A stretch of 48,088 nucleotides of DNA from a virus (lineage: Duplodnaviria > Heunggongvirae > Uroviricota > Caudoviricetes). The notes beneath the pieces were generated by a model. The model was not told the origin of the DNA. It saw only the letters and a list, made by a program, of their open reading frames with translations, and made no database searches. A program made the position numbers and the translations under genes. Each line of letters starts with the position of its first letter. Position 1 is the stretch's first letter. Below are positions 1-35,627 of this stretch, one piece after another. Location of the stretch: the IMG/VR virus record IMGVR_UViG_2844443253_000007; one strand, given 5' to 3'.

Positions 1-436
1 ATGAAGCGTGAAGAAATCGCTGATCTGATGGCGTTTGTCGTCGTTGCAGAGGAGCGTAGCTTCACTCGCGCAGCAGCCCGCCTGAGCATGGTGCAGTCAG
101 CTTTAAGCCAGATAGTGCGCCGTATAGAAGAACGATTGGGATTGCGGCTTCTGACGCGAACCACGCGCAGCGTTGTACCCACTGAAGCGGGCGAGCATCT
201 TTTGTCTGTTCTTGGCCCTATATTGCATGACATAGATTCTGCCCTGACATCCCTGAGCGATCTGCAGAACCGCCCATCCGGGACAATACGTATTACTACT
301 GTAGAACATGCAGCAAAAACGATATTGTTACCAGCCATGCGCACATTCCTGAAATCGCATCCTGAAATTGATATTCAGCTTACCATTGATTATGGTTTGA
401 CCGATGTCGTTTCTGAACGTTTTGATGCAGGCGTCC
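1..436 (+). pseudogene. LysR-family transcriptional regulator, N-terminal portion only; reading frame runs into IS600 terminal repeat at 437
   Basis: N-terminal HTH typical of LysR regulators (FTRAAARLSMVQSALSQ) followed by start of co-inducer domain; ORF continues only by reading through IS600 end. Confidence 0.8.
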
Positions 437-479
437 TGAGGTGTACTGGCAATAGCGGATACTACCATTTGTTCTTTTT

Positions 480-1298
480 TTAAGCAGCCATCTGATGATA
501 TTTTTCCCTGAAGGCTGCCGGGGAGATATTCCCCAGACGAGAGTGACGACGCTGACGATTGTAGAAAATCTCAATGTATTCCCGTATTACTGAGATGGCT
601 TCATCCCGGTTATTAAAACGATAGTGGCTCAGGCTCTCATTTTTCAGCGTTCCCCAGAAGCTTTCCATCGGAGCGTTGTCGTAACAGTTACCTTTACGCG
701 ACATTGATGTTTTCAGACCAGACTGCTCCTGTATGACCCGGTAATCGTATGCGCAGTACTGTGAACCTCGATCAGAGTGGTGGATTAGCCCGGCAGGTGG
801 GCGCTGGCTCCTGAGCGCCATAAACAGGGCTTTACCTGTCAGCTCTTTTGTCATGCGCTCTCCCATGGCGTAGCCGACAATTTCGCACGTATAAACATCT
901 TTGATGCCAGCGAGGTACAACCATCCCTCCTGTGTGGCAACATACGTCAGGTCCGCCACCCAGACCTGATTTGGTGCTGTAGGAGCGAACGTCTGGTTCA
1001 GCAGATTTGGCGCAACTGGCAGATTGTGGTTCGGGTTCGTAGTCGCTCTGAACTTGCGTTTCTGCTTACAGCGTAGCCTCAGCTCCTTACGAAGACGTGC
1101 AAGTCGGTCACGACCAACGATGATGCCATTCTCTGCCAGCTCCGTCTGGAGCCGCCGGGTTCCATATGTTTCGCGAGTGCGGATATGTGCCACCTTAATC
1201 TCCAGTTTTAGCCGCTCATCACTTTGTTTTCTGTCTGAGGGTTCATGCTGTACCCAGTTGTAATAACCGCTCCTGGATACACCAAATACCTGACACAT
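480..1298 (-). CDS. IS600 OrfB transposase (DDE integrase-like catalytic domain)
   Basis: 272-aa ORF identical or near-identical in 5 copies; rve-type motifs (HSDRGSQY, DNAPMESFW). Confidence 0.9.
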   Translation of the reverse strand: MCQVFGVSRSGYYNWVQHEPSDRKQSDERLKLEIKVAHIRTRETYGTRRLQTELAENGIIVGRDRLARLRKELRLRCKQKRKFRATTNPNHNLPVAPNLLNQTFAPTAPNQVWVADLTYVATQEGWLYLAGIKDVYTCEIVGYAMGERMTKELTGKALFMALRSQRPPAGLIHHSDRGSQYCAYDYRVIQEQSGLKTSMSRKGNCYDNAPMESFWGTLKNESLSHYRFNNRDEAISVIREYIEIFYNRQRRHSRLGNISPAAFREKYHQMAA

Positions 1299-1333
1299 CG
1301 CTTCAATGGGAAATTGTTGTCGCCATTGTTCGA

Positions 1334-1636
1334 TTAACGCGTATTTTTCAGCGACTCCTGTGCAAAATACGCTGTTGCTTTTTTTAATATATCTCGCTCA
1401 AGGCGAGCTTCATTTAACGCCTTACGCAGTTGCAGAATTTCAGATTCCAGTTCAGCCAGCGTGCGGGAACCAGGAGTACCGAGCCCTTTTCTGGCGGCGG
1501 TAACCCATTGTCCTAAAGTGCCTTCAGGAAGGGATAATCGGGAAGCGCCTTCACTGATTGAAAGTTGATTTTCAAGAACCGTTCTGACAGCTTCGGCTTT
1601 GAACTCTTTAGAGTAACGTTGGGTTTTTCTGCTCAT
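1334..1636 (-). CDS. IS600 OrfA (HTH transposase subunit)
   Basis: 100-aa ORF repeated in IS600 copies; leucine-zipper/HTH IS3-family OrfA. Confidence 0.9.
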   Translation of the reverse strand: MSRKTQRYSKEFKAEAVRTVLENQLSISEGASRLSLPEGTLGQWVTAARKGLGTPGSRTLAELESEILQLRKALNEARLERDILKKATAYFAQESLKNTR

Positions 1637-2163
1637 TATTAGCTCCTTCTGATGCCATTCTATTTCAGGAAGGAGTGTCCGTTAAACTCAGGCTACCTCA
1701 CTTATTCTAAGCAACCGGGTAGCATCATACGGGGCAATTATGGCCGCATTACCATACATGCAACTGTACATAGCTGATTACCTGGCTGACACCATGCATT
1801 TGTCAGCAGAGGAGCACGGCGCGTATTTGTTGCTGATGTTCAATTACTGGCAAACAGGAAAGCCAATACCCAAAAACAGGTTGGCAAAAATTGCCCGTCT
1901 GACTAACGAGCGATGGGTTGATGTTGAACCATCCTTGCGGGAGTTTTTTTGTGATAACGGCGACGAATGGATGCATCTTCGGATTGAGGAAGATCTGGCA
2001 TCTGTCAGAGAAAAATTAACCAAAAAATCAGCCGCAGGAAAAGCATCTGTTCAGGCCAGAAGAAGCAGAAAGGAAGCAGATGTTCAAACAAAACAAGAGA
2101 GAAATTTAACAGGTGTTCAAACAGATGTTGGAGTGGTGTTCGAACATGATGCTGGATTTGCCC

Positions 2164-3069
2164 TTATATTTCCAGACATCTGTTATCACTTAACCCATTA
2201 CAAGCCCGCTGCCGCAGATATTCCCGTGGCGAGCGATAACCCAGCGCACTATGCGGATGCCATTCGTTATAATGCTCGAACGCCTCTGCAAGGTTCTTTG
2301 CTGCCGTTAACCCGTCTGGTTTGGGCATGATACTGATGTAGTCACGCTTTATCGTTTTCACGAAGCTCTCTGCTATTCCGTTACTCTCCGGACTCCGCAC
2401 CGCCGTGTTCTTCGGTTCAAGTCCCAACATCCGGGCGAACTGGCGTGTTTCATTAGCCCGGTAGCATGAACCATTATCCGTCAGCCACTCCACTGGAGAC
2501 GACGGAAGATCGTTGCCGAAGCGGCGTTCCACCGCTCCCAGCATGACGTCCTGTACTGTTTCACTGTTGAAGCCGCCGGTAGTCCCCGCCCAGTGCAGTG
2601 CCTCACGATCACAGCAGTCCAGCGCGAACGTGACACGCAGTCTCTCTCCGTTATCACAGCAGAACTCGAACCCGTCAGAGCACCATCGCTGATTGCTTTC
2701 TTTCACGGCCACTCTGCCTGTATGTGCCCGTTTCGATGGCGGTACAGCAGGTTTTCGCTCAAGCAACAGCGCATTCTGGCGCATGAGCCGGTAAACACGT
2801 TTGGCATTGATCGCAGGCATACCATCAAGTTCTGCCTGTCTGCGAAGCAGCGCCCATACCCGACGATAACCATACGTGGGCAGCTCTCCGATAACATGGT
2901 GTATACGGAGAAGCACATCCGTATCATCAGTGTGACGACTGCGGCGGCCATCCATCCAGTCATCGGTTCGTCTGAGAATGACGTGCAACTGCGCACGCGA
3001 CACCCGGAGACAACGGCTGACTAAGCTTACTCCCCATCCCCGGGCAATAAGGGCGCGTGCGCTATCCAC
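2164..3069 (-). CDS. insD: IS2 InsD transposase
   Basis: 301-aa ORF, IS3-family DDE transposase, duplicated at 37970-38875. Confidence 0.9.
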
Positions 3070-3437
3070 TTTTTTGCCCGTCCATATTCAACGGCTTCTT
3101 TGAGGAGTTCATTTTCCATCGTTTTCTTGCCGAGCAGGCGCTGGAGTTCTTTAATCTGCTTCATGGCGGCAGCAAGTTCAGAGGCAGGAACAACCTGTTC
3201 TCCGGCGGCCACAGCAGTAAGACTTCCTTCCTGGTATTGCTTACGCCAGAGAAATAACTGGCTGGCTGCTACACCATGTTGCCGGGCAACGAGGGAGACC
3301 GTCATCCCCGGTTCAAAGCTCTGCTGAACAATTGCGATCTTTTCCTGTGTGGTACGCCGTCTGCGTTTCTCCGGCCCTAAGACATCAATAATCTGTTCTC
3401 CAATGACAAGTCTAAAAACTGGTATTAAGACTATCAC
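3027..3437 (-). CDS. insC: IS2 InsC (HTH subunit); ORF track start may be upstream of true start
   Basis: ORF overlapping insD start in -1 frame arrangement typical of IS3 family. Confidence 0.85.
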
Positions 3438-4230
3438 TTAAATAAGTGATACTGGTTGTCTGGAGATTCAGGGGGCCAGTCTAGATGCCAACACAAAGGC
3501 AACTAATAAAGATACAGATAAAGATCTAAAAACAGATCTAACCCATCCCAAACCCTTCCCTTCCGGAAGGGAGTTTCGGGATTTTGTGGCTGGAGTGCTT
3601 GAGGGGAGATTATCTGGCGGTACTGCAGCGGAATTTTGTAATTCTGCGGTGGTTGCGTTGCAGGCTGCTGGCCTGGATGTCTGTCGTGAGTATCCGGTGC
3701 CAGAGCGTGGTGACGGTTGCGGAGGGCGGATTGATATCGTCGTGACTGACAGGAACGGTGTCCGGTGTGGGATCGAGCTTGACCGAAATTCTCCGCGACA
3801 GAAATCACTGCTCAAAATCGGTGCTGTTGAAACCGGGATATGTGTCTTGCGGCGCAGTGATATCGCAAGGCACACCGAGCAGGGAATTCTGGTTATCGGT
3901 GGGGCTGTTCGCCAGAAAAAATTTGACCCGTTGTCAGTTGATCTGCCCGACTGGTTGTCAGAAACACTCTGGCATGAGTGGGTCCAGTTCAGGCAGGCAT
4001 TGCGAAAACCGATTCGAACGGAGCTGGGCGCTAACGGGGCGATACGGGAACTGGAAAAATTCCGTCAGCAGGGTTTTACACCTGAGCAGGTGATTCGACA
4101 CAGCATCGCCAATGAATACCAGGGTCTGTTCGCGCCGAAAGGTGTTCGGCCTGAGACGTTGCTCCGACAGGTTAACACCGTCTCGTTGCCGGACAGTGCG
4201 ATCCCGCCAGGCTTCAGGGGGTAACAGACC

Positions 4231-4977
4231 ATGAAAAATATTGCGACAGGAGGCGTTCTGGAGCGTATCCGCAGACTGACCCCACCACATGTAACCGCCC
4301 CATTCAGAACGGTTGCGGAGTGGCGCGAGTGGCAACTTGCTGAAGGCCAGAAACGTTGCGAGGAGATCAACCGCCTGAATCGTCAGTTGCGGGTGGAAAA
4401 AATCCTGAACCGCTCCGGCATCCAGCCGTTGCACCGGAAGTGTTCGTTTGCGAATTACCGGGCGCAGAACGACGGTCAGCGACATGCACTGAGTCAGGCG
4501 AAATCCATAGCTGACGAACTGATGACAGGCTGTACGAATTTTGTGTTCAGCGGTAAGCCCGGCACCGGAAAAAATCATCTTGCAGCCGCGATTGGCAACC
4601 GGCTGATGGCGAAGGGGCGTAGCGTGATTATCGTCACCGTGTCCGATGTCATGAGCGTGTTGCATGAGAGCTACGACAACGGCAAATCCGGTGAAAAATT
4701 TTTACAGGAGCTTTGTGGTGTTGACCTGCTGGTCCTGGATGAAATTGGCATGCAGCGGGATACGAAAAACGAGCAGGTGGTACTGAACCAGATTGTTGAT
4801 CGCCGGACGGCATCGTTACGCGGTGTGGGGATGCTGACAAATATTAACCATGCAGCGATGAATACACTTCTCGGCGAGCGGGTGATGGATCGCATGGTCA
4901 TGAACGGCGGGCGCTGGGTTAATTTTAACTGGGAGAGCTGGCGTCCGAATGTTAGCCATTCGAGGGTTGTTAAGTAG
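4231..4977 (+). CDS. DnaC-like replicative helicase loader (phage replication ATPase)
   Basis: Walker A GKPGTGKNHL and Walker B LLVLDEIG; position after replication initiator. Confidence 0.8.
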   Translation: MKNIATGGVLERIRRLTPPHVTAPFRTVAEWREWQLAEGQKRCEEINRLNRQLRVEKILNRSGIQPLHRKCSFANYRAQNDGQRHALSQAKSIADELMTGCTNFVFSGKPGTGKNHLAAAIGNRLMAKGRSVIIVTVSDVMSVLHESYDNGKSGEKFLQELCGVDLLVLDEIGMQRDTKNEQVVLNQIVDRRTASLRGVGMLTNINHAAMNTLLGERVMDRMVMNGGRWVNFNWESWRPNVSHSRVVK

Positions 4978-5828: not shown

Positions 5829-6140
5829 TTAAATTTAGCACTGTTAAAAATTTAATCCTTAACCGGAGGGATTTCTGCACCCTCAAATCATCAGGAGACC
5901 GCCCGAAAGGGCGGTAATGAATGGTTACATTATTTAGAAAAAAATATCCGCGAAAGAGTAGAACAACAGAATTCCTGTTTCTCATTCTGTTTATCGTGTT
6001 GATGACACCGATATCCCCGCAAATTTTTGTCTGGATAATCGGAAAAATAATTGAGCCAGTTATTGAATTGTATAACGACGTGGTATGGGCGTCATTCAAC
6101 ACACTGCACAATAAAATTAATCCGTATAAGGAAAGCTGAT

Positions 6141-6506
6141 ATGGCACTGACGAAAAAACAACGTGCAGAACTGCGCATGAAGTTCGGTGGTCGCTGCGCT
6201 TATTGCGGCTGCGAACTTGGCGAAAAGTGGCATGCAGACCATGTAAAACCGGTCATTCGTTTTGATGGAAATATGCTTCACCAGGAACGTGACGATATAT
6301 CCAACATGGTACCAGAATGCCACCCATGCAATCTGCACAAGCATTGCAGTAGCCTGGAAGATTATCGACGAATTATCAGTGATGGTCGTCGTGAATTCCT
6401 TGCGTCCGGGAAAGGCAAAGCGCTGGTTCGTATGGGATTGGTTGAAATGAAATCTGACCCGGTTGTGTTCTGGTTTGAAAAATATCAAGAAGGGGCTACG
6501 GCATGA
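6141..6506 (+). CDS. HNH endonuclease
   Basis: CAYCGC...HADH...CHPCN motif pattern of HNH nucleases; RBS AAGGAAAG upstream. Confidence 0.75.
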   Translation: MALTKKQRAELRMKFGGRCAYCGCELGEKWHADHVKPVIRFDGNMLHQERDDISNMVPECHPCNLHKHCSSLEDYRRIISDGRREFLASGKGKALVRMGLVEMKSDPVVFWFEKYQEGATA

Positions 6507-10920: not shown

Positions 10921-11307
10921 CTCAATCTGTTATCCGGGGCTATATTCCTCACGCGCCAGCAAAATCTGGCGTCGGGATTGGCGTCCCGGATGTTTACGGA
11001 GCGATATGAGACGCGCCCGCGTCTTTTTTCATATCGTTTGCACAGTCACATTCGCGATTTATGGCGGGCTGTGTGGGGGAGCCGAAAGGCTCGCCGGTTT
11101 CCGTACCCGGTTACGCCAACCCTGCACAGTTCGCCACCAGTTCGATTGGCGTCGTCGGTGGCGATAATTTCCAAATGTACGGAGTTATCGTTATGACCAC
11201 TCAAATCTCTGTTGAAACTCTCTCCCCGATCACCCATAACCAGTGAGGTAGCCTGAGTTTAACGGACACTCCTTCCTGAAATAGAATGGCATCAGAAGGA
11301 GCTAATA

Positions 11308-11610
11308 ATGAGCAGAAAAACCCAACGTTACTCTAAAGAGTTCAAAGCCGAAGCTGTCAGAACGGTTCTTGAAAATCAACTTTCGATCAGTGAAGGCGCT
11401 TCCCGATTATCCCTTCCTGAAGGCACTTTAGGACAATGGGTTACCGCCGCCAGAAAAGGGCTCGGTACTCCTGGTTCCCGCACGCTGGCTGAACTGGAAT
11501 CTGAAATTCTGCAACTGCGTAAGGCGTTAAATGAAGCTCGCCTTGAGCGAGATATATTAAAAAAAGCAACAGCGTATTTTGCACAGGAGTCGCTGAAAAA
11601 TACGCGTTAA
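11308..11610 (+). CDS. IS600 OrfA
   Basis: Identical to other copies. Confidence 0.9.
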   Translation: MSRKTQRYSKEFKAEAVRTVLENQLSISEGASRLSLPEGTLGQWVTAARKGLGTPGSRTLAELESEILQLRKALNEARLERDILKKATAYFAQESLKNTR

Positions 11611-11645
11611 TCGAACAATGGCGACAACAATTTCCCATTGAAGCG

Positions 11646-12464
11646 ATGTGTCAGGTATTTGGTGTATCCAGGAGCGGTTATTACAACTGGGTACAGCATG
11701 AACCCTCAGACAGAAAACAAAGTGATGAGCGGCTAAAACTGGAGATTAAGGTGGCACATATCCGCACTTGCGAAACATATGGAACCCGGCGGCTCCAGAC
11801 GGAGCTGGCAGAGAATGGCATCATCGTTGGTCGTGACCGACTGGCACGTCTTCGTAAGGAGCTGAGGCTACGCTGTAAGCAGAAACGCAAGTTCAGAGCG
11901 ACTACGAACCCGAACCACAATCTGCCAGTTGCGCCAAATCTGCTGAACCAGACGTTCGCTCCTACAGCACCAAATCAGGTCTGGGTGGCGGACCTGACGT
12001 ATGTTGCCACACAGGAGGGATGGTTGTACCTCGCTGGCATCAAAGATGTTTATACGTGTGAAATTGTCGGCTACGCCATGGGAGAGCGCATGACAAAAGA
12101 GCTGACAGGTAAAGCCCTGTTTATGGCGCTCAGGAGCCAGCGCCCACCTGCCGGGCTAATCCACCACTCTGATCGAGGTTCACAGTACTGCGCATACGAT
12201 TACCGGGTCATACAGGAGCAGTCTGGTCTGAAAACATCAATGTCGCGTAAAGGTAACTGTTACGACAACGCTCCGATGGAAAGCTTCTGGGGAACGCTGA
12301 AAAATGAGAGCCTGAGCCACTATCGTTTTAATAACCGGGATGAAGCCATCTCAGTAATACGGGAATACATTGAGATTTTCTACAATCGTCAGCGTCGTCA
12401 CTCTCGTCTGGGGAATATCTCCCCGGCAGCCTTCAGGGAAAAATATCATCAGATGGCTGCTTAA
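11646..12464 (+). CDS. IS600 OrfB transposase
   Basis: Near-identical to other copies (one R to C substitution). Confidence 0.9.
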   Translation: MCQVFGVSRSGYYNWVQHEPSDRKQSDERLKLEIKVAHIRTCETYGTRRLQTELAENGIIVGRDRLARLRKELRLRCKQKRKFRATTNPNHNLPVAPNLLNQTFAPTAPNQVWVADLTYVATQEGWLYLAGIKDVYTCEIVGYAMGERMTKELTGKALFMALRSQRPPAGLIHHSDRGSQYCAYDYRVIQEQSGLKTSMSRKGNCYDNAPMESFWGTLKNESLSHYRFNNRDEAISVIREYIEIFYNRQRRHSRLGNISPAAFREKYHQMAA

Positions 12465-13111
12465 AAAAAGAACAAATGGTAGTGTCCGCTATTGCCAGTA
12501 CACCTCACAGATTCCTGTTATTACCACCGAACTTTTGGCGCAGCTTTACGGCACTGAGCCGGTGCGTATTCGCCAGAATCATCATGAGAACAAAGTACGC
12601 TTCGTTGAAGGGAAACACTTTTTCAAAGTTGTTGGTAATGACCTTAAAGAATTGCGGGTCGCTTTAAACTACTCACAAAATCCAGTTTCACCCAAAGCCC
12701 GCTCCCTCATCCTCTGGACAGAACGAGGCGCAGCACGCCACGGCAAAATGCTCGAAACCGATCAGGCGTGGGATGTGTTCGAAAAACTGGAAGACTGCTA
12801 TTTCAGTCAAAGGGATCCGTCAACGCCAGTTTCATGCCAGAAAAGTTACGACACGCGAGTTCTCTGTTATCAGAGAGGCGGTGTCACTGTTTCCACAATT
12901 CAGTTACGGGATGATGATATTGTTATTTCCCTTGAGTCATGGCTGGAACTGGCGAGAGCCAATGGTTGGTTTGTTGTTCGCAGAGATAAACTGGTGGAAA
13001 GGTTGATGCAGCTTTAAAAAAGTTCTTGCATTTTTGCACATAAACTGCTTCAATTACGGTAAGCTTCGCAAAGCTGTATCGCGAGGCGAATAGCAGACAT
13101 GGACACTTGAA

Positions 13112-13138
13112 AGAACCCGCTTTATGCGGGTTTTTTTG
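13112..13138 (+). terminator. Rho-independent terminator
   Basis: GAACCCGCTTTATGCGGGTTTTTTTG. Confidence 0.6.
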
Positions 13139-13225
13139 TGCCTGAAAAATGGCACAGGGCGTTAAACGCGCTGGTGGTCAGATGAGTTTGCAGATGTGAT
13201 GACATATGGTTATTATTCTGCCTCC

Positions 13226-13302
13226 GGCCCTTTAGCTCAGTTGGTCAGAGCGAGCGACTCATAATCGCCAGGTCGCTGGTTCAAGTCCAGCAAGGGCCAC
13301 CA
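13226..13302 (+). tRNA. tRNA with anticodon CAT (Ile2/lysidine-type or Met)
   Basis: Cloverleaf with acceptor GGCCCTT/AAGGGCC, anticodon loop CTCATAA, TPsiC GGTTCAAGTCC, CCA end; resembles ileX/ileZ-type. Confidence 0.8.
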
Positions 13303-13303
13303 A

Positions 13304-13380
13304 CCACCACTAGCTCATCCGGATAGAGCATCAACCTTCTAAGTTGACGGTGCGAGGTTCGAGTCCTCGGTGGTGGGCCA
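13304..13380 (+). tRNA. tRNA-Arg (anticodon TCT); unusual acceptor stem beginning with C
   Basis: Anticodon loop CTTCTAA, TPsiC GGTTCGAGTCC, acceptor CCACCAC/GTGGTGG, CCA end. Confidence 0.7.
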
Positions 13381-13382
13381 GC

Positions 13383-13458
<76 letters not shown>

Positions 13459-13461
13459 TAT

Positions 13462-13536
<75 letters not shown>

Positions 13537-13650
13537 TGACCTTTCTTAAAGTACTCCAACCTACTGAATCCTAAGGGATACGGCTTTAAGCCTCCTTGCA
13601 GAGTTACTTACTGTAACCCACTGTGTAACCCTCTCAGGGCATGCAGACAT

Positions 13651-15255
13651 ATGATTCAGCTATCCAGTAGTCACAAACTTCCAGCAGTCTACTATCTCTA
13701 CCAGCGTAACGGCGTCTACTACTTCCGTCTTAGGGTCAGACAATCAAACAATGATAGAATGACCTCAATATCATTACGGACCAAGGATAGACGCACCGCT
13801 ATGGCTTACTCAAGGCACATAAAGGCAGCACTCAAGGCAATACACGCAGACAGACCCAACGCTACCTATGAGGAAATGAGGGAACACCTTAAGGACATCG
13901 CTGAGTGTGAACTGTCTATGGGCCGTTCAGATCTCTTTGAGCCTGACATGAGGGATATCTACCGGGACCAATACGGAGAACTTGGTGAGAGCCTTACCGA
14001 TGCTCTGGCTAGTGAGCCGCTAAGCATTGACCAGCATCGTTACATCAATGAGGCCCTGAAGGTGCTAAAAGCCTGTATGAGGCGTATCGAAGCGGGAGAC
14101 AGTCAGCCTCTGATAGATTACGTCGATCTTTTTAATGATATTGATAGGCAAGATAACCAAGCAGACTCTGTGTCCCTATCTGTTAATGCTCCAGAAGTAA
14201 AACCAGAAGTTACGCCTAGCATTACCATAGCGAGCCTCTTTGAACAATACGAAGCGGAGAACTATCAGAACTGGAAGCCTGCAACCTTAAGGGAAAACAA
14301 GGCGTCACACGCTGCGTTAATCGAAATATTCGACCATCTGGGTCTCAATGCAGACGCTAACAGGGCTGACATGCTTAGGGTCCGTGATGTGCTCCAGCAG
14401 TTACCTAGGAACCGTAAGCAGCGCTTCAAGGATGTCCCACTTGCTGACCTGTTGAGCCGTGAAGATAAGACAGATTGTCTGGATGTCGTTACCATCAACA
14501 ACAAGTATCTTATTAAGATGGCTGCTGTCTTTAGGTGGGCTGTGCGCAATGACTTGATTAAAAAGAACATGACTGAGGGTCTGGAGCTTAAAGTCCCTCA
14601 GCGTAAAGCCTCAGGGGCCCGTAACGCCTTCTCTACGGAGCAGGTGGGGCAACTACTGGTCGCAGCTAAGGCATACTCTCAGAAGACCTCTGGTAAGCCG
14701 TATCATTATTATGTTACCGCCTTGGCTGCTATCACTGGGGCGAGACTCAATGAAATAGCCCAACTACAGGTCAAAGACGTCAGGACCACTGAGGCGGGAA
14801 CCGTTTATATTCATATCAATGAAGACGATAGTAGTCTACCCGGTAAGAGCATCAAGAACGCTCATAGTGACCGCTGTGTGCCTCTGGTCGATGGGGCCTA
14901 TGGTTTTATATTGGCTGACTTTATGGCGCTTGTAGAGACCCGTAGAGGCGCTGACGGTGATGACGCTATGGTGTTCGATGGTCTGCGTCTCATGAAGAAC
15001 GGTTACGGTGAGCAGGTGAGTAAATGGTTTAATCGGACGTTGTTGCCTAAAGTCCTCGTAGACCGTAGCGGCTTAGCGTTTCACTCGTTTAGACATACAG
15101 TTGCGGCCCAGTTAAAACAACATGGGGTCGAGTTGGCGTATGCACAGGCGATCATGGGGCATAGTTCAGGGTCTATTACGTACGACCGTTATGCTAAAGA
15201 GGTCGAGGTTGATAGGCTGGTCAATGTGATGGCTGATGTTTATAAGGAGACCTAG
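13651..15255 (+). CDS. int: Tyrosine recombinase / integrase (534 aa) adjacent to tRNA cluster
   Basis: C-terminal catalytic signature (R in ITGARLNE, HSFRHT, final Y in ITYDRY); N-terminal arm-binding-like domain. Confidence 0.85.
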   Translation: MIQLSSSHKLPAVYYLYQRNGVYYFRLRVRQSNNDRMTSISLRTKDRRTAMAYSRHIKAALKAIHADRPNATYEEMREHLKDIAECELSMGRSDLFEPDMRDIYRDQYGELGESLTDALASEPLSIDQHRYINEALKVLKACMRRIEAGDSQPLIDYVDLFNDIDRQDNQADSVSLSVNAPEVKPEVTPSITIASLFEQYEAENYQNWKPATLRENKASHAALIEIFDHLGLNADANRADMLRVRDVLQQLPRNRKQRFKDVPLADLLSREDKTDCLDVVTINNKYLIKMAAVFRWAVRNDLIKKNMTEGLELKVPQRKASGARNAFSTEQVGQLLVAAKAYSQKTSGKPYHYYVTALAAITGARLNEIAQLQVKDVRTTEAGTVYIHINEDDSSLPGKSIKNAHSDRCVPLVDGAYGFILADFMALVETRRGADGDDAMVFDGLRLMKNGYGEQVSKWFNRTLLPKVLVDRSGLAFHSFRHTVAAQLKQHGVELAYAQAIMGHSSGSITYDRYAKEVEVDRLVNVMADVYKET

Positions 15256-15343
15256 AGGAGACCATAGTCTAGGATGACACTTACTACAGACCTGTGTGGT
15301 CATGTTTTTGACTCATAGTTTTCTCTACTTGTCAAGGGATAAT

Positions 15344-15366
15344 TAATACGACTCACTATAGGGAGA
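15344..15366 (+). promoter_or_regulatory. T7-type promoter, exact 23-bp consensus TAATACGACTCACTATAGGGAGA (predicted +1 G at 15361)
   Basis: Exact match to the T7 RNA polymerase class III promoter consensus. Confidence 0.9.
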
Positions 15367-15463
15367 AGGGACACAAAAAGTTTTCTCTTCTAGGATGACA
15401 CTTACTACAGACCTGTGCGGTCATGTTTTTGACTCATAGTTTTCTCTGCTTGTCAAGGGGTAA

Positions 15464-15486
15464 TTAATACGACTCACTATAGGGAG
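15464..15486 (+). promoter_or_regulatory. T7-type promoter, exact 23-bp consensus (copy 2)
   Basis: Exact match. Confidence 0.9.
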
Positions 15487-15583
15487 AAGGGACACAAAAA
15501 GTTTTCTCTTCTAGGATGACACTTACTACAGACCTGTGTGGTCATGTTTTTGACTCATGGTTTTCTCTACTTGTCAAGGATAA

Positions 15584-15606
15584 TTAATACGACTCACTAT
15601 AGGGAG
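15584..15606 (+). promoter_or_regulatory. T7-type promoter, exact 23-bp consensus (copy 3)
   Basis: Exact match. Confidence 0.9.
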
Positions 15607-15630
15607 AAGGGACACAAAAAGTTTTCTCTT

Positions 15631-17622: not shown

Positions 17623-17778
17623 ATGTCTCAACAACCACAACAACCACAACAAGAAATCAGCATCATTAACCTCGACCAGCTTGTGTCCATGACCTCAGTT
17701 GAAATTGCTGAGCTGACAGGCAAGGAGCACCGAAATGTCCTTCGTGATATTCGTAAGATGCTCGAAGAACTTAACGCG
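17623..17778 (+). pseudogene. Rha-family phage regulatory protein, N-terminal fragment truncated by IS1
   Basis: TSVEIAELTGKEHRNVLRDIRKML matches Rha/antirepressor N-terminal motif; ORF runs into IS1. Confidence 0.7.
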
Positions 17779-17833
17779 GGTAATGCTGCCAACTTACTGA
17801 TTTAGTGTATGATGGTGATTTTAAGGTGCTTGC

Positions 17834-18109
17834 GTGGCTTCCATTTCCATCAGATGTCCTTCCTGCTCCGCTACTGAAGGCGTGGTGCGTAACGGCAAAA
17901 GCACTGCCGGACATCAGCGCTATCTCTGCTCTCATTGCCGTAAAACATGGCAACTACAGTTCACTTACACCGCCTCTCAGCCCGGTAAGCACCAGAAAAT
18001 CATTGATATGGCCATGAATGGCGTCGGATGTCGCGCCAGTGCACGCATTATGGGCGTTGGCCTCAACACGGTTTTACGTCACTTAAAAAACTCAGGCCGC
18101 AGTCGGTAA
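17834..18109 (+). CDS. insA: IS1 InsA
   Basis: Repeated ORF. Confidence 0.9.
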
Positions 18110-18531
18110 CCTCGCGCATACAACCGGGCAGTGATGTGATTGTCTGCGCTGAAATGGACGAACATTGGGGCTACGTCGGTGCTAAATCACGTCAGCGCTG
18201 GCTGTTTTACGCGTATGACAGGATACGGAGGACGGTTGTGGCGCACGTCTTCGGTGAACGCACTCTGGCCACACTGGAGCGTCTTCTGAGCCTGCTGTCG
18301 GCCTTTGAGGTCGTGGTATGGATGACGGATGGCTGGCCGCTGTATGAATCACGCCTGAAGGGAAAGCTGCACGTTATCAGCAAGCGTTACACTCAGCGCA
18401 TTGAGCGACATAATCTGAATCTGAGACAACATCTGGCAAGGCTGGTACGGAAGTCACTGTCGTTCTCAAAATCGGTGGAGCTGCATGACAAGGTCATCGG
18501 GCATTATCTGAACATAAAACACTATCAGTAA
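18028..18531 (+). CDS. insB: IS1 InsB
   Basis: Repeated ORF. Confidence 0.9.
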
Positions 18532-18546
18532 GTTGGAGTCATTACC

Positions 18547-19497
18547 AAAAAAAGCAACAGCGTATTTTGCACAGGAGTCGCTGAAAAATACGCGTTAATC
18601 GAACAATGGCGACAACAATTTCCCATTGAAGCGATGTGTCAGGTATTTGGTGTATCCAGGAGCGGTTATTACAACTGGGTACAGCATGAACCCTCAGACA
18701 GAAAACAAAGTGATGAGCGGCTAAAACCGGAGATTAAGGTGGCACATATCCGCACTCGCGAAACATATGGAACCCGGCGGCTCCAGACGGAGCTGGCAGA
18801 GAATGGCATCATCGTTGGTCGTGACCGACTGGCACGTCTTCGTAAGGAGCTGAGGCTACGCTGTAAGCAGAAACGCAAGTTCAGAGCGACTACGAACCCG
18901 AACCACAATCTGCCAGTTGCGCCAAATCTGCTGAACCAGACGTTCGCTCCTACAGCACCAAATCAGGTCTGGGTGGCGGACCTGACGTATGTTGCCACAC
19001 AGGAGGGATGGTTGTACCTCGCTGGCATCAAAGATGTTTATACGTGTGAAATTGTCGGCTACGCCATGGGAGAGCGCATGACAAAAGAGCTGACAGGTAA
19101 AGCCCTGTTTATGGCGCTCAGGAGCCAGCGCCCACCTGCCGGGCTAATCCACCACTCTGATCGAGGTTCACAGTACTGCGCATACGATTACCGGGTCATA
19201 CAGGAGCAGTCTGGTCTGAAAACATCAATGTCGCGTAAAGGTAACTGTTACGACAACGCTCCGATGGAAAGCTTCTGGGGAACGCTGAAAAATGAGAGCC
19301 TGAGCCACTATCGTTTTAATAACCGGGATGAAGCCATCTCAGTAATACGGGAATACATTGAGATTTTCTACAATCGTCAGCGTCGTCACTCTCGTCTGGG
19401 GAATATCTCCCCGGCAGCCTTCAGGGAAAAATATCATCAGATGACTGCTTAAAAAAAGAACAAATGGTAGTGTCCGCTATTGCCAGTACACCTCAGT
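18547..19497 (+). mobile_element. IS600, 3' partial copy (~951 bp; first ~325 bp including most of orfA missing)
   Basis: Begins at A-run inside orfA 3' end; ends with IS600 right terminus ...CACCTCA. Confidence 0.9.
18634..19452 (+). CDS. IS600 OrfB transposase (no orfA upstream)
   Basis: Near-identical to other copies. Confidence 0.85.
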   Translation: MCQVFGVSRSGYYNWVQHEPSDRKQSDERLKPEIKVAHIRTRETYGTRRLQTELAENGIIVGRDRLARLRKELRLRCKQKRKFRATTNPNHNLPVAPNLLNQTFAPTAPNQVWVADLTYVATQEGWLYLAGIKDVYTCEIVGYAMGERMTKELTGKALFMALRSQRPPAGLIHHSDRGSQYCAYDYRVIQEQSGLKTSMSRKGNCYDNAPMESFWGTLKNESLSHYRFNNRDEAISVIREYIEIFYNRQRRHSRLGNISPAAFREKYHQMTA

Positions 19498-19871: not shown

Positions 19872-20416
19872 ATGTTGCATTTAAAAAATATTACTACGGG
19901 TAATCCGAAAACAGCAGAACAATATCAGATGACAAAACGATATTCGGTCACCTGGCTTTTTTCAGAAGACGGAAAAAACTGGTATGAAGAGCTGAAGAAT
20001 TTCGCCAGGACACAATTAAAATAACTTACACCGGAGACGGTCGCGTGGTGTGGGTCGGTAAGGATGTGACAGGCATTGAACCCCGTAACGCCAGTGTTAT
20101 TGAAGTTCCTGATATTACCGCCAACCGCCGCATTACCGCGCCGGGTTACTGGTTTTACCGCAATGATGAATTTGTCTTTGACTACAGACTCAAAGCGGAA
20201 GATGAGCGTGATGCCCTTCTGGCTCAGGTCAGTGCCCGGACAGGGGAATGGGAAGAAGACCTGCTGCTGGGGTTAATCAGCGACGAAGATAAAGAAAAGC
20301 TGAAAGCCTGTCGTATTTACGCGAAATCGCTGCAGGCGATGGATTTCAGCACCATCACTGATAAATCCTCATACAACGCCATTGAATGGCCCGCCTCTCC
20401 GGAAGGTTCTTCCTGA
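19872..20416 (+). pseudogene. Tail fiber assembly protein, frameshifted near 20000
   Basis: N-part [19 protein letters not shown]... stops at 20024; C-part continues in another frame and ends with IEWPASPE typical of Tfa. Confidence 0.65.
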
Positions 20417-20439
20417 TTTAATTTATCGCGAGAAAAACA

Positions 20440-21354
20440 ATGTCTGTAGTGATATCAGGTGCGCTGACTGATGGCGCAGGTATCCCCATGTCCGGATACC
20501 ATATTATTCTGAAATCCCGGGTAAACCCCCCGGAAGTGGTGATGAACACTGTTGCTGATGTGATGACAGGAAACGATGGTGAATACTGTTTCCATGCGCG
20601 GACTGGAAAATATGGTGTGTATCTGAAACAGGACTGGCGCAACGAGTACAACGTTGGCGACATTGCTGTATATGAGGACTCAAAGCCCGGCACGCTGAAT
20701 GACTTTCTGATTGCTCCTGATGAGGGCGACCTGAAACCGGATGTCGTCAAACGCTTTGAGGAAATGGTGGCGCAGGCGCAGCAGAGCGCCGGGGCCGCAG
20801 CCGGAAACGCACAGCAGACGGCGCAGGATGTGGCGGCAGCCGCAGGTTATGCCCGCGCAGCAGAGCAGGCCAAAAATGACATTGATGCTGCGCTGACCGG
20901 CACTCTGAAAACGGCTAACCATCTGTCTGAAATCGCAGCAGCAGGCGAAAAGGCACAACAGAAGTCCCGGGATAATCTGGGGCTGAAAAGTGCGGCCACG
21001 ATGGAAGCACAGAGCGACATTTACGACCGGACAAAAGGCCGTCTGGCGATACCCGGCGCATTCGGCTTTGGGTGTGCTTTTCTGCCTGAAGATGTTATCC
21101 GTTTTGACACTAAGAGTGATTTCCTGGCCTGGGTAAGGAATGCGCTGCCAGGTGAATATTCCGTTGCTGGCCCCTACGGCATCATCATACCCGACACACG
21201 GTTTGAAGGGGTGCTCAGCATCCGGTGGACTGATGCACGCCCTGAGACAACAGAACCGCGGTACAGAGCCAAATCCCTTACTTTTTACGGCATTAACGGC
21301 CCCATTTATCACACCCGCTACCGCTACTGGCCCATATCCAGACTGACTGGGTGA
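20440..21354 (+). CDS. Phage tail fiber protein (N-terminal conserved type)
   Basis: 304 aa, Ala/Gln-rich central region typical of side tail fibers. Confidence 0.6.
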   Translation: MSVVISGALTDGAGIPMSGYHIILKSRVNPPEVVMNTVADVMTGNDGEYCFHARTGKYGVYLKQDWRNEYNVGDIAVYEDSKPGTLNDFLIAPDEGDLKPDVVKRFEEMVAQAQQSAGAAAGNAQQTAQDVAAAAGYARAAEQAKNDIDAALTGTLKTANHLSEIAAAGEKAQQKSRDNLGLKSAATMEAQSDIYDRTKGRLAIPGAFGFGCAFLPEDVIRFDTKSDFLAWVRNALPGEYSVAGPYGIIIPDTRFEGVLSIRWTDARPETTEPRYRAKSLTFYGINGPIYHTRYRYWPISRLTG

Positions 21355-21704
21355 AAATAAATATAACCACAGAAGATATTATTTACAGAATCGTGGCGAG
21401 CTCTGTCCGCAACAGATGGGGAGACCCTGACATTGGCGGGCTGATTATTGCTGCGTACCAGGGAGAAGCTGACGGTGATAAAGTCATCAGACTTGTCAGG
21501 GGGCAGTCATACAGAGGCTCACGACTGGGACCGGTGGGGATTTCAGTGCCCAGTACTCCCACCGGAACGTATATAGCATCCCCACAATTTTTCATTACGG
21601 GATGTTCAGAGCATTCATTACCGGGGTCATATTGCGCCCTGTCCGGGGTGCCGGATGCTCATGTCTCTGGCGCAATGCCCGGGCTTTTTATTCGCACATC
21701 GTGA
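21351..21704 (+). CDS. Tail-fiber-associated hypothetical ORF (possibly remnant of fiber C-terminus)
   Basis: GTG start overlapping upstream stop; region from 21538 is duplicated at 41736. Confidence 0.4.
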   Translation: MKINITTEDIIYRIVASSVRNRWGDPDIGGLIIAAYQGEADGDKVIRLVRGQSYRGSRLGPVGISVPSTPTGTYIASPQFFITGCSEHSLPGSYCALSGVPDAHVSGAMPGLFIRTS

Positions 21705-21713
21705 GGAATGCAC

Positions 21714-22278
21714 CGTGGAAATTAAAAAAATCATTAATCCCCGTTATACCGAAAGTGGCGCAGTAGACTGTGACGTTTTTTTTGACGACAGGGACCAGGC
21801 AGTCCCCTACACAGCCACCGCTGATGATGTCGCTCCGACGGGTCAGCAAATCTGGCAGGAACTGCAAAGCGGCAAATGGGGTGAGATAGCCCCATTCACT
21901 GTGACACCAGAAATGCTGGAAGCGGCCAGAGAGGCCAGACGTCAGGAAATTGAAGCATGGCGCGCAGAACAGGAGGCGAAGCTGTTCACGTTTGAATGGA
22001 ACGGTCGTATCTGGAATGCTGGTCCCGACTCACTGGGCCGCCTGTCCCCGGTAGTCATGCTGGCAAAATCTGTCACAGCACAAACACATATGGCGTGGAG
22101 CGATGCCGATAATCAGCAGGTGAAACTGTCGATGCCGGAACTGGAAGAACTGGCGGCAGCAATGGTGCAGGCGCAGGTCGATCGCAACGATGAGATTTAT
22201 CGCCGTCAGCGGGAGCTGAAGGAAGAGCTGAATAGTCTGAAGGATTTGAATTCGGTTAGGAATTTTATCGTGGAATAA
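21714..22278 (+). CDS. Tail fiber assembly protein (Tfa-like)
   Basis: [25 protein letters not shown]... typical Tfa N-terminus; GTG start; second diverged copy at 41911-42475. Confidence 0.7.
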
Positions 22279-22478: not shown

Positions 22479-23336
22479 CTAATTGGGTGATAACAGATCC
22501 TGTGTATGGGCGTTTCCCTTTGTGCGTGCGTTGATGCTGGTAACGGTAAACGTCATGATGAACACGACCGCGAATAAGACGACAATCGTCGGAGCTGGTG
22601 CGCTGTCGATAAAAAAGGACAGCCAGACACCAGTCATTGACACTATTACCGATATGCCAGTCGCCAGTAGGAGCGCAATATGAAAGCGTTGTGTCAGGAG
22701 TACTGCAATGGCGCCAGGCGCAATGAGCAGAGAAATAGAGAGAATGATACCTACTGCTTTCAGCGTCGCCACAATGGTCAGGGAAACCATGCACAGCAGC
22801 CCATAATGCAGCCATCTCGTATGCAAACCGCTTACCTGCGCCTGTTGATAATCAAAGCTGAACAGCAAAAAATCCCGCCATTTTACGCTAATAACAAGTG
22901 TAACCAGCCCGGCAATAATCACCGTCTGGATTATGTCGCCGATGGTTATCCCGAGCATGTCGCCGAAAAGAATATGGTCAAGATGTACGTCTGGTTTAAT
23001 TGCAATATACAAGATCAGACCTGCGGCAAACATGCCAGAAAAAACAATCCCCATAACTGTATCTTGCTTGATTCGGCTGTTGTCTTTCAGGTATCCCGTC
23101 GCCACCGCGCAGAATACTCCGGCGACGAATGCCCCTGTAGCCAGAGGTAACCCCAGAATCCAGGTAAGCACGATGCCAGGAAAAACCGCATGACTCATCG
23201 CGTCACCCATCAGTGCCCAACCTTTCAGGACCAGAAAGACCGACAGCAGCGCACAGGGTATGGAAACTACCAGTGAAATCAGCAGTGCGTGACTCATAAA
23301 GGTGAACTGCAGTGGCTCCAGTAATAATGCCATCAT
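22479..23336 (-). CDS. sitD: Mn/Fe ABC transporter permease SitD
   Basis: 285-aa polytopic membrane protein, last gene of four-gene operon. Confidence 0.85.
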   Translation of the reverse strand: MMALLLEPLQFTFMSHALLISLVVSIPCALLSVFLVLKGWALMGDAMSHAVFPGIVLTWILGLPLATGAFVAGVFCAVATGYLKDNSRIKQDTVMGIVFSGMFAAGLILYIAIKPDVHLDHILFGDMLGITIGDIIQTVIIAGLVTLVISVKWRDFLLFSFDYQQAQVSGLHTRWLHYGLLCMVSLTIVATLKAVGIILSISLLIAPGAIAVLLTQRFHIALLLATGISVIVSMTGVWLSFFIDSAPAPTIVVLFAVVFIMTFTVTSINARTKGNAHTQDLLSPN

Positions 23337-24190
23337 GAGCGATCCTCCAGCGCTTTATGCGCACGCCGACGATTTGCCAAAAGTCCATGGGTGGGCGCAA
23401 ATACAAATGCTAAAAGAAACAGCAGTGTCTGCGCCACCACGATGATTCCACCTGTCGCGCCGTCCAGAAAGTAACTGACCCACGCGCCGAGGAAACTGGT
23501 TACACTGCCAATAGTTACAGCAATTATGAGCAGGCGGGGAAAACGATCGGTTAACAACCATGCTGTTGCACCGGGAGTCACCACCAGACAGATCACCAGA
23601 AAGGCACCAACCGTTTGCAGCGCCGCAACGGTCGAAACCGACAGCAGGGTGAAGAAGAGGATTTTTAATCTGCCCGGATGTAATCCAATAGCACGGGCGT
23701 GATTCTCGTCGAAAAAGGTCACCATAAGATCTTTCCATTTGAAAAAAAGCACGATGATCGAGAGAATGCCAATGATAGTGAGTTGCAGGATATCCGCCGG
23801 ATCGATTGCCAGAATATTGCCCAGGACGATGGTCTGAATGTTCACGGATGTCGGGTTCAATGACACCATAAACAGCCCCAGGCCAAAAAAGGACGAGAAG
23901 ATCAGGCCGATGATGGCATCTTCTTTTAAGCGGGTGCGTTGGTTAAGAAACAGCATGCTGCCCGCTGCCAGTCCGCCGGAAAAGAAGGCTCCCAGAGAAA
24001 ACGGAAGCCCCAGCATATATGCCCCCGCAACACCCGGGACAATAGAGTGCGACAGCGCATCGCCAATCAGCGACCAGCCTTTTAGCATCAGATAGCATGA
24101 CAGGAAAGCGCAGAGACCGCCGACCATTGCCGAGACCCACATCGCATTGAGCATATATTCATAGCTGAAGGGTTCCAGTAGCACGTTCAT
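23333..24190 (-). CDS. sitC: Mn/Fe ABC transporter permease SitC
   Basis: 285-aa membrane protein, overlapping start/stop with neighbours. Confidence 0.85.
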
Positions 24191-28155: not shown

Positions 28156-29038
<883 letters not shown>

Positions 29039-29042
<4 letters not shown>

Positions 29043-34358: not shown

Positions 34359-34423
34359 CTGAGGTAGCCTGAGTTTAACGGACACTCCTTCCTGAAATAG
34401 AATGGCATCAGAAGGAGCTAATA

Positions 34424-34726: not shown

Positions 34727-34761
34727 TCGAACAATGGCGACAACAATTTCCCATTGAAGCG

Positions 34762-35580: not shown

Positions 35581-35627
35581 AAAAAGAACAAATGGTAGTG
35601 TCCGCTATTGCCAGTACACCTCACAGG

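Follow-up and report, generated by a model that had tools for sequence, protein, structure and literature searches.

An IS600 copy joining split pgrR to a prophage ydaU–ydaV module very probably marks a recombination endpoint in the Shigella flexneri chromosome

Rearrangement of the chromosome by IS600 is an ordinary and already known phenomenon in Shigella flexneri. Among six inversions between Sf8401 and Sf301, one was attributed to IS600 (PMC1550401), and Baker et al. described an inversion of large extent, along with a double recombination, for 301 and NCTC1 against 2457T (PMC4226921). Here we analysed a 48,088-nucleotide stretch of DNA (the window), in which an IS600 copy lies between the 5' part of pgrR and ydaU, a gene of a decayed prophage. 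Compared with the IS-mediated inversions and translocations of S. flexneri (2457T/301, 8401/301 and NCTC1), the joint in the window is of the same kind: it lies in an IS, has no target duplication, and its reciprocal joint is found hundreds of kilobases away. It matches the published large inversion between 2457T and 301/NCTC1, a correspondence based on the strain polymorphism and not on exact endpoints.

Positions 437–1700 hold a complete IS600 element (IS3 family, IS3 group) of 1264 bp on the minus strand. Its termini, read directly from the sequence, start with TGAGGTGTAC at 437 and end with GGCTACCTCA at 1700, and over 1264/1264 bp the element shows 99.6% identity to annotated copies on pINV of S. 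flexneri M90T, which carry the annotation 'IS3-like element IS600 family transposase'. The ends are TG...CA and contain imperfect terminal inverted repeats at 437–458 and 1679–1700, of which TGAGGTGTACTGGCAATAGCGG and TGAGGTAGCCTGAGTTTAACGG (the latter being the reverse complement of 1679–1700) agree at 14 of 22 positions. The ORF list and Pfam searches place orfA (100 aa, HTH_Tnp_1) at 1334–1636 and orfB (272 aa, HTH_21, rve, rve_3 and rve_2, with the rve/DDE integrase domain) at 480–1298, both on the minus strand, consecutive and in 0/−1 phases; an A7G run at 1378–1385 is the predicted −1 frameshift slippery site. Thus the element shares its length, ends, orfA/orfB organization, A7G run and rve/DDE domain with the IS600 type, and differs in the absence of a 3-bp direct repeat. 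It belongs to IS600, but as a recombinant copy.

The flanking trinucleotides are TCC (434–436) and CTT (1701–1703), so that no 3-bp direct duplication is present, as the earlier note had read. That note had also held that a duplication emerging after correction of the boundaries would overturn its claim; on reading the sequence, no shift of 437 or 1700 yields one. Moreover, 3-bp duplications accompany five independent IS600 insertions with the same termini, namely those at 11244–12507 (CAG/CAG) and 46336–47599 (GTT/GTT) of the window, the one in pgrR of S. flexneri 2457T (TCC/TCC), and those in two further loci, L043 (ATC/ATC) and L042 (CAG/CAG). The boundaries are therefore correct, given these insertions and the TCC/TCC flanks of the very same insertion in 2457T. 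The window contains four more IS600 copies, and since sibling IS600, IS2 and IS1 copies there do have target duplications, the missing duplication is specific to the copy at 437–1700. A repeat-finder match between the copies at 437 and 11244 appeared to reach 22 bp past IS600; sequence reading revealed it to be an artefact of ungapped extension.

The mismatch could in principle reflect an ordinary single insertion of IS600 with a duplication that is missing or escapes recognition, through mis-set boundaries, atypical transposition, or a transposase-mediated adjacent deletion or inversion. IS3-family elements do occasionally give atypical duplications, and the mismatch alone is weak evidence because flanks are unequal by chance in 63 of 64 cases; the case thus rests on comparative data. 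Against a single insertion, the boundaries are fixed by the five other duplicated insertions and by 2457T, no E. coli examined has pgrR next to ydaU, and internal SNPs seem to change partner within IS600 (see below). By its known geometry, a replicative intramolecular inversion would place the left side of the target, inverted, next to the 5' part of pgrR, and not ydaU in K-12 orientation. We consider this explanation highly improbable. Instead, the absence of a direct repeat is accounted for by flanks that derive from two different insertions.

In E. coli K-12, pgrR (ycjZ) encodes a LysR-type repressor of murein-peptide degradation genes. Megablast, which returned pgrR matches in 5218 E. coli genomes, together with alignment and Pfam identified window positions 1–436 (plus strand) as nucleotides 1–436 of this gene, i.e. 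codons 1–145 and the first base of codon 146. This 5' part, pgrR', is 97.5% identical to K-12 b1328 (aligned to 5992–6427 of the K-12 locus L002) and 99.3% identical to other E. coli, and its upstream neighbours ycjY, mpaA, ycjG, tpx and tyrR follow the K-12 order; in contrast to K-12, the gene is split after codon 145. The alignment thus bears out the earlier reading of a LysR-family gene cut at about codon 146. The pgrR' frame continues into IS600, giving a fusion ORF of 160 aa at 1–483 with Pfam HTH_1 and LysR_substrate matches, which keeps the HTH and part of the effector domain and adds 15 IS-encoded residues. At the uninterrupted K-12 site, GGCGTCC is followed directly by GTCTGGG. In strain 2457T (L008), this IS600 occupies the identical pgrR position with its orientation unchanged, and its flanks are TCC/TCC: ...GGCGTCC precedes the element and TCCGTCTGGG follows it, after which come the intact 3' half of pgrR ('pgrR), mppA, ynaI, uspE and fnr. 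Comparison with 2457T and K-12 therefore identifies TCC at 434–436 as the left copy of the original target duplication of pgrR::IS600. Strain 2457T retains the original simple TCC/TCC insertion. Its pgrR state is either ancestral or, as the joint in the window is so widespread, a re-inversion. One joint and the literature together suggest a single inversion as the difference between 2457T and the window.

The joint in the window is present in most complete S. flexneri genomes. Among the matches listed, about 20 complete genomes of S. flexneri share the 160-aa fusion ORF with ydaU as neighbour, NCTC1 (LM651928.1), a strain from 1915, being one of them, and 2457T alone differs; the joint is also found on two IMG/VR prophage contigs. 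This distribution bears on a possible assembly artefact, in which contigs would be mis-joined across the repeated 1.26-kb IS. Shigella chromosomes do carry hundreds of IS copies, at which short-read assemblies collapse or mis-join. However, an identical joint in about 20 complete genomes sequenced independently, in different laboratories and decades, as well as on the two prophage contigs, makes such an artefact the least credible of the explanations considered.

The earlier note had proposed to locate the rest of the LysR gene with its flank, and to compare synteny with K-12. The 3' half of pgrR was found about 0.4–0.5 Mb away, inverted and joined through TCC to the same IS600 end. A 171-aa ORF running from this IS600 end through TCC into 'pgrR occurs on 350 contigs, and 27 of these belong to complete genomes. 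CP034931.1 has the 5' half at 2,049,806–2,050,288 on the minus strand and the start of the 3' half at 1,553,460 on the plus strand; the two halves thus share one chromosome in opposite orientation, and 495 kb separates the two IS600 copies. The same topology is seen in CP026765.1 and CP026810.1, with about 487 kb and about 407 kb, respectively, from 'pgrR to ydaV. Behind the detached half, the same genomes keep mppA, ynaI, uspE, fnr and ogt. The IS600–TCC–'pgrR joint is therefore reciprocal to the pgrR'–TCC–IS600 joint of the window, with the complementary flank. The pgrR C-terminal fragment P0014, tried as a route to the Shigella joints, led to frameshifted E. coli pgrR genes instead.

These findings also bear on a simple deletion, in which directly oriented IS600 copies in pgrR and, about 29 kb downstream, in ydaU would have recombined with loss of mppA–fnr–ttcA–int...ydaT. 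In K-12, pgrR and ydaU do lie in the same orientation and order, 28.7 kb apart, and the rest of pgrR is absent from the window, so that the joint looks deletion-like when seen from the window. Nevertheless, the same genomes keep 'pgrR with mppA, ynaI, uspE, fnr and ogt, joined to IS600 by TCC, and CP034931.1 has both pgrR halves on one chromosome, 495 kb apart and inverted. Given that mppA through fnr are retained, the exchange was reciprocal, and we regard a deletion as very unlikely.

On the right side of IS600, positions 1701–2152 (plus strand) correspond to ydaU, a DUF1376 gene of the prophage replication module, minus its first 12 annotated nucleotides, as indicated by alignment, translations and Pfam. 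Identity to ydaU of Rac-type prophages is 99.6% for E. coli FDAARGOS_944 and 96.7% for K-12; the segment aligns to 20001–20452 of locus L001 (99.6%) and to 35132–35582 of the K-12 locus L002. The earlier note had placed the start of this gene 39 bp from the IS600 end. An ATG is indeed found there, at 1740, yet the K-12 and PGAP annotations put the ydaU start 12 nt left of 1701 (MLFV before the joint, LILS... after it). With the annotated start, the first four codons are lost to IS600, and residue 18 corresponds to the ATG at 1740. The E. coli empty site reads ATGCTGTTTGTGCTT to the left of the insertion point and ATTCTAAGC to its right, which places CTT (1701–1703) at codon 5 of ydaU; a separate IS600 insertion presumably duplicated its target here, with CTT as the right copy. 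An IS2 element at 2153–3483 (minus strand) is a simple insertion in ydaU with a 5-bp duplication, GATGC (2148–2152 and 3484–3488), as seen from a 5-bp overlap of the L001 alignments and from the sequence itself. A second IS2 copy occurs in the window at about 37957. The rest of ydaU (ORF to 4224) and a ydaV-like gene for a DnaC/IstB-type ATPase (4231–4977; Pfam IstB_IS21 and Bac_DnaA) occupy 3484–4977 on the plus strand and align to L001 20448–22392. The DUF1376 gene followed by the DnaC/IstB-like ATPase gene is colinear with K-12 Rac and FDAARGOS_944, and by annotation ydaU–ydaV is a replication module; immunity genes are absent here.

Farther right, the locus follows the sit prophage at ttcA of FDAARGOS_944: ydaU, ydaV, a DUF977 gene, nin-region genes, a Q-like gene, a tRNA cluster, sitABCD and the att core are colinear at 96–99.6%. 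Compared with the ydaS–ydaT–ydaU–ydaV region of K-12 Rac and with FDAARGOS_944, the left arm has been separated in full, from int to ydaT, IS2, IS1 and IS600 insertions are present, and the late region is largely replaced. In these strains, the sit prophage consists of a separated right arm that lacks integrase and immunity genes, and thus cannot excise. Its right end, aligned to K-12 Rac attR and attL, lies at 26138–26301 (plus strand) and includes a ttcA-type att core (26259–26301), which is directly followed by the integrase of a second prophage. This order equals the attP-like arrangement expected if the prophage had moved as a unit, the sit prophage circle from ttcA having re-entered through recombination of its own ydaU IS600 with the pgrR IS600; a circular permutation, 'ydaU...right end–attP–int...ydaT–ydaU', would result. 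However, the order sitA–right end–core–integrase also occurs in E. coli A21, H22 and others, and A21 has it at the native locus immediately upstream of uspF, where the annotated stretch of 40 kb contains no IS600. In view of these occurrences the circularly permuted reading of 26138–27001 was rejected, and 26138–27001 is a natural tandem-prophage joint. In addition, the integrase/xis module after the core is only 94–97% identical to that of the sit prophage relative, compared with 98.5–99.6% on the ydaU side, and a moved unit predicts ydaU'–IS600–'pgrR, where recE', xis or yebY is seen instead. Movement of the prophage as a unit accordingly has as little probability as the deletion. The joint at 437–1700 was also said to mark a prophage/backbone boundary, which holds only if a scar left by rearrangement is meant, and not an att end at which the prophage naturally terminates.

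On the left of the IS600 that adjoins 'pgrR, the flank is recE' (CAC), a sequence downstream of xis (ATC), or yebY; next to this joint lies a second prophage, beside yebY. A secondary deletion between two IS600 copies in direct orientation accounts for the ATC variant; in other strains, one of the two still has ATC/ATC. Because 'pgrR has recE' (or xis, yebY) of another prophage as its partner, instead of the ydaU 5' stub, IS600 copies must have exchanged at least twice. No instance of the expected partner joint, ydaU'..CTT–IS600, turned up in IMG/VR, GTDB representative genomes, JGI metagenomes or any fetched locus, nor in complete E. coli genomes queried with a synthetic joint of 240 nt, and none of 15 loci showed ydaT–ydaU'(CTT)–IS600–TCC–'pgrR; hence the first step of a two-step model is only inferred. 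YdaT proteins (P0156 and P0150), also tried as a route to the partner joint, led only to other prophages with ydaU uninterrupted or with a different replication gene.

SNPs inside IS600, at window positions 460, 1034, 1057, 1459, 1532 and 1559, were used as markers of the exchange. Joints of the window type carry T-G-C-G-G-T (19 loci), and 6 of the 25 fully typed loci carry other combinations. The reciprocal joints beside 'pgrR carry C-A-T-C/G-A-C (13 loci), plus a single CGCGAC and partial variants. In 2457T the markers read T-G-C-G and then A-C, so this copy looks like a chimera of the left half of one joint and the right half of the other. The switch from the pgrR'-side to the 'pgrR-side type would put the crossover at 1460–1531 (IS positions 1024–1095), a zone that widens to 1058–1531 if the marker at IS position 1023 is disregarded. 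The majority pattern thus fits SNPs that stay linked to their flanks, but given the deviating loci the crossover interval is only suggestive. Gene conversion between roughly 100 copies, or the collapse of assemblies, would be expected to produce such noise.

Taken together, the TCC/TCC flanks of 2457T, the surviving 3' half of pgrR and the linkage of the SNPs to the flanks in the majority pattern point to a reciprocal recombination endpoint. The earlier note had preferred, over a simple insertion, an endpoint at which two IS600 copies had recombined or a deletion had ended; of these, the recombination stands and the deletion does not. The joint in the window is thus very probably an endpoint of reciprocal homologous recombination between two IS600 copies, as an inversion or translocation, in which the ydaU copy would already have taken part in an earlier exchange. 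Initially, in an S. flexneri chromosome, IS600 would have inserted at codon 146 of pgrR and duplicated TCC. A second IS600 copy, about 0.5 Mb away, would already have been present in a Rac-type prophage carrying sit, at ydaU codon 5, and would have lost its own left neighbour in an earlier exchange. Afterwards, homologous recombination within the 1.26-kb element would have swapped the DNA to the right of the pgrR copy, giving pgrR'..TCC–IS600–CTT..'ydaU (the window) and recE'..CAC–IS600–TCC..'pgrR–mppA..., the latter beside the yebY prophage. As a net result, a block of about 29 kb, 'pgrR–mppA–fnr towards ttcA, would have been carried past a segment of about 0.5 Mb and inverted. We infer the order and number of these events, RecA-type recombination as their agent, the original CTT/CTT insertion in ydaU and, from its two ends, the orientation of the 0.5-Mb segment.

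A more far-reaching idea, which we consider unlikely, is that the two IS600 copies form a reversible switch: the terminus-proximal segment of about 0.5 Mb would flip recurrently in S. flexneri populations, 2457T would represent one state, and the configurations would differ in fitness, so that the polymorphism is maintained. If so, the difference might stem from gene dosage, from the balance of the replichores, or from transcription reading out of the IS into ydaU–ydaV or 'pgrR–mppA. The locus is otherwise mostly a matter of bookkeeping, as a clean, traceable example of IS600 copies scrambling the S. flexneri chromosome. It gives exact breakpoints, codon 146 of pgrR and codon 5 of ydaU, for the rearrangement that separates 2457T from 301, NCTC1 and most sequenced strains. 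pgrR is a dead gene in every configuration; for annotation it should be treated as a split pseudogene with two distant halves, and the two hybrid joints are handy PCR or long-read markers of the chromosome configuration.

Structural analysis of the element at 437-1700 (minus strand) revealed a complete IS600 of 1264 bp, with termini read directly from the sequence (first bases TGAGGTGTACTGGC, last bases CAGGCTACCTCA). Over the full 1264 bp it shares 99.6% identity with copies on Shigella virulence plasmids that are annotated as "IS3-like element IS600 family transposase", and it encodes, on the minus strand, orfA (1636-1334; 100 aa, HTH_Tnp_1) and orfB (1298-480; 272 aa, rve), with an A7G slippery run at 1378-1385. 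The outer 3-bp flanks, TCC (434-436) and CTT (1701-1703), indeed differ, as the earlier note had read them. Three further full copies and one partial copy of IS600 are present in the window, all in the opposite orientation, besides four IS1, two IS2 and additional IS elements. Identical termini bordered by 3-bp duplications are found in the sibling copies at 11244-12507 (CAG/CAG) and 46336-47599 (GTT/GTT). The latter, which we used as an internal control for IS600 insertion, is a simple insertion interrupting a lambda-type serine/threonine phosphatase gene (45886-47600). Comparison loci hold further IS600 duplications (ATC/ATC and CAG/CAG), and these copies, together with the TCC/TCC state of Shigella flexneri 2457T at the same pgrR site, establish the boundaries 437 and 1700 as correct. 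The element is therefore a bona fide IS600 lacking solely the target duplication, and this lack is accounted for. The partial IS600 (18547-19496), which retains the last 950 bp, has the A7G frameshift run as its exact starting point and lies directly against an IS1 (17778-18546).

On the left, the element borders the first 436 nt of pgrR (ycjZ, b1328; window 1-436), a LysR-family regulator gene; this stretch aligns to Escherichia coli K-12 at 97.5% identity, and of 5426 complete E. coli genomes, 5218 contain it (95-99.3% identity). The LysR gene previously noted as cut at about codon 146 is thus pgrR, broken after base 1 of that codon, and its frame continues for 15 codons inside IS600 to yield a 160-aa fusion ORF. 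A lookup of this ORF in public assemblies, restricted to exact matches, returned at least 23 blocks with contigs of complete-genome size, from S. flexneri wherever the source gives an organism. Among the contexts listed, all but one have IS600 followed by ydaU without its 5' end ('ydaU), as in the window. In 2457T (AE014073.1), this IS600 occupies the identical position with unchanged orientation, and is followed by TCC, the remaining pgrR, mppA, ynaI, uspE and fnr. The 2457T site reads GGCGTCC-IS600-TCCGTCTGGG, and the uninterrupted K-12 site GGCGTCC-GTCTGGG. Given this TCC/TCC state, IS600 entered pgrR by a normal insertion duplicating TCC. In the window, the right-hand neighbour of that insertion has been exchanged for another, and all configurations leave pgrR a pseudogene.

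The present right-hand neighbour (1701-2152) is the DUF1376 gene ydaU from a Rac-type prophage, with 99.6% identity to E. coli FDAARGOS_944 and 96.7% to K-12 Rac. An IS2 with a clean 5-bp duplication, GATGC, interrupts it at 2153-3483, beyond which lie the remainder of ydaU and the DnaC/IstB-like ydaV (4231-4977). A replication gene had been proposed to start 39 bp from the IS end; ATG 1740 fits this distance, but the start annotated in K-12 and by PGAP is 51 nt upstream, at the junction of ATGCTGTTTGTG and CTT. Under that annotation, four ydaU codons are lost to IS600 and ATG 1740 is Met18.

As pgrR and ydaU have identical order and orientation in the window and K-12, the joint mimics a 28.7-kb deletion when viewed from the window alone. 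Such a deletion is ruled out, because the 3' half of pgrR ('pgrR) with mppA, ynaI, uspE, fnr and ogt survives elsewhere, linked to IS600 via TCC. A 171-aa ORF in 2457T begins within the IS600 end and continues via TCC into 'pgrR; its exact protein occurs on 350 contigs of the collection, 27 of which belong to complete genomes, each named as S. flexneri. Genomes with this ORF read IS600 end-TCC-'pgrR, then mppA, ynaI, uspE, fnr and ogt. In CP034931.1, which has the window-type joint, the 5' half (pgrR') lies at 2,049,806-2,050,288 (-) and 'pgrR starts from 1,553,460 (+), with 495 kb separating the two IS600 copies. The same topology is seen in CP026765.1 and CP026810.1, where 'pgrR and ydaV are about 487 kb and about 407 kb apart, respectively. 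Two gene halves, far apart and inverted, each with an IS600 end, are the signature of reciprocal IS-IS recombination. The window joint is thus an endpoint of homologous recombination between IS600 copies. Of the "recombination or deletion endpoint" in the earlier note, recombination stands and deletion falls, since the 'pgrR half is retained, distant and inverted; the rest of the LysR gene and its partner flank, which that note advised locating, were found elsewhere as 'pgrR with TCC at an IS600 end.

We further aligned the IS600 copies and scored six polymorphic IS positions (24, 598, 621, 1023, 1096 and 1123) in each fetched locus. Window-type joints carry T-G-C-G-G-T (19 loci), and reciprocal joints C-A-T-C-A-C or C-A-T-G-A-C (13 loci), plus a single CGCGAC and partial variants. 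The 2457T copy, T-G-C-G-A-C, is window-type at the pgrR' side and reciprocal-type at the 'pgrR side, with the switch falling in IS positions 1024-1095 (window 1460-1531). Terminal markers therefore travel with their flanks, a pattern predicted by crossover within IS600 and not by transposition. Other combinations occur in six window-type loci, so the crossover interval 1460-1531 is suggestive only. The marker pattern is symmetrical in time, and on markers alone either configuration could be first. The window-type joint is present in NCTC1 (isolated 1915), 2002017 and most other complete genomes, and the reunited pgrR configuration only in 2457T. Baker et al. (PMC4226921) described a large-scale inversion together with double recombination in 301/NCTC1 versus 2457T, and Nie et al. 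2006 (PMC1550401) held IS600 responsible for one of the six inversions between Sf8401 and Sf301. Given this distribution and the published inversions, a re-inversion specific to 2457T is the more economical reading. IS-IS recombination joints are already known: they have been described repeatedly in the chromosomes of Shigella, this strain pair in particular, and the mechanism is not new. Left of 'ydaU, strain variants (the L014, L016, L017 set) show ongoing IS-mediated turnover: in CP026765.1 an IS110-family element abuts IS2, with pgrR' and IS600 lost; in CP054892.1 the holin region of another prophage precedes IS600; and CP026810.1 has yet a different arrangement.

In the fetched loci, the left neighbour of the IS600 beside 'pgrR is something other than ydaU's 5' stub. 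In seven loci the position is taken by a 5'-truncated recE (flank CAC), which belongs to a lambdoid prophage integrated next to yebY, in the order yebY-int-xis-[IS600 with ATC/ATC]-DUF1187-AAA-Gam-recE'. Six loci have a site downstream of xis (flank ATC), which would match the expected remnant of a secondary deletion between two direct IS600 copies, and in one locus the neighbour lies inside yebY. Since CTT flanks the window joint on the right and CAC the reciprocal joint on the left, the recombining IS600 partner was already a hybrid. We thus propose a two-step exchange, the first step of which we infer, as the simplest history compatible with every joint seen. Initially, an IS600 in ydaU (CTT/CTT) of the sit-carrying Rac-type prophage would have exchanged with an IS600 in recE (CAC/CAC) of the yebY prophage. 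Afterwards, the resulting recE'-IS600-'ydaU copy would have exchanged with the pgrR copy. Two overlapping inversions would leave most of the 0.5-Mb segment oriented as it originally was, and a block of about 29 kb, from 'pgrR towards ttcA, would move to the far end, inverted. This predicted outcome agrees with the orientations at both segment ends in CP034931.1. The predicted ydaU'-CTT-IS600 joint was not found in IMG/VR, GTDB representatives, JGI metagenomes or complete E. coli genomes. In most genomes (L035-L043, L058-L062), the reciprocal-joint IS600 is split at IS position 893 by an IS3-family element of about 1.3 kb, which also occurs in the window (28114-29419); the L044 copy is unsplit.

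FDAARGOS_944 carries the entire sit prophage at ttcA (int...ydaT-ydaU...sitABCD-attR). Two parts of the window match this prophage at 96-99.6%: the stretch between ydaU codon 5 and the tRNA cluster, and sitABCD with the att core. In the window, the right end of the sit prophage with its ttcA-type att core lies at 26138-26301 (core 26259-26301), adjoined by cargo genes for the iron/manganese ABC transporter sitDCBA (22479-25928, minus strand). Directly after the core at 26301 follow another Rac-type integrase gene, split by IS1 (27000-27770), and an early-left region. A circularly permuted prophage at 26138-27001 was rejected, because E. coli A21 (just upstream of uspF) and H22 also have sitA, core and integrase in this order, which makes the stretch a tandem-prophage joint. 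What was naturally the left end of the sit prophage (ttcA-core-int...ydaT) has been moved elsewhere. The prophage/backbone boundary formerly placed at the IS600 holds only as a rearrangement scar and not as a natural prophage end.

The prophage-borne tRNA cluster, within 13226-15630, comprises Met(cat), Arg(tct), Thr(tgt) and Gly(tcc), and homology to the FDAARGOS_944 prophage ends exactly at the tRNA-Gly 3' end (13536). Beyond it lie a gene for a 534-aa tyrosine integrase (13651-15255) and three 121-bp tandem repeats (15268-15630), which suggests that an integrative element inserted in the phage tRNA gene and that the lysis and late region was replaced. A second full IS600 without target duplication (34360-35635) has CTC on its left and a different right flank. 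Directly past its end, the 12-bp caggctacctca is an inverted copy of the outermost 12 bp at the opposite end of IS600, and recE resumes after it. Compared with FDAARGOS_944, part of recE (12698-14505 of that locus, which itself has ISEc60 there) is missing, and the site resembles a scar left by a further IS600-IS600 event. Finally, a 571-aa ipaH-type ORF (42655-44370, minus strand) combines, to judge from sequence motifs, an N-terminal LRR portion with a C-terminal portion resembling an E3 ligase; it lies among IS fragments and a tail-fibre-assembly gene of which the window has two copies (21655-22278 and 41852-42475).
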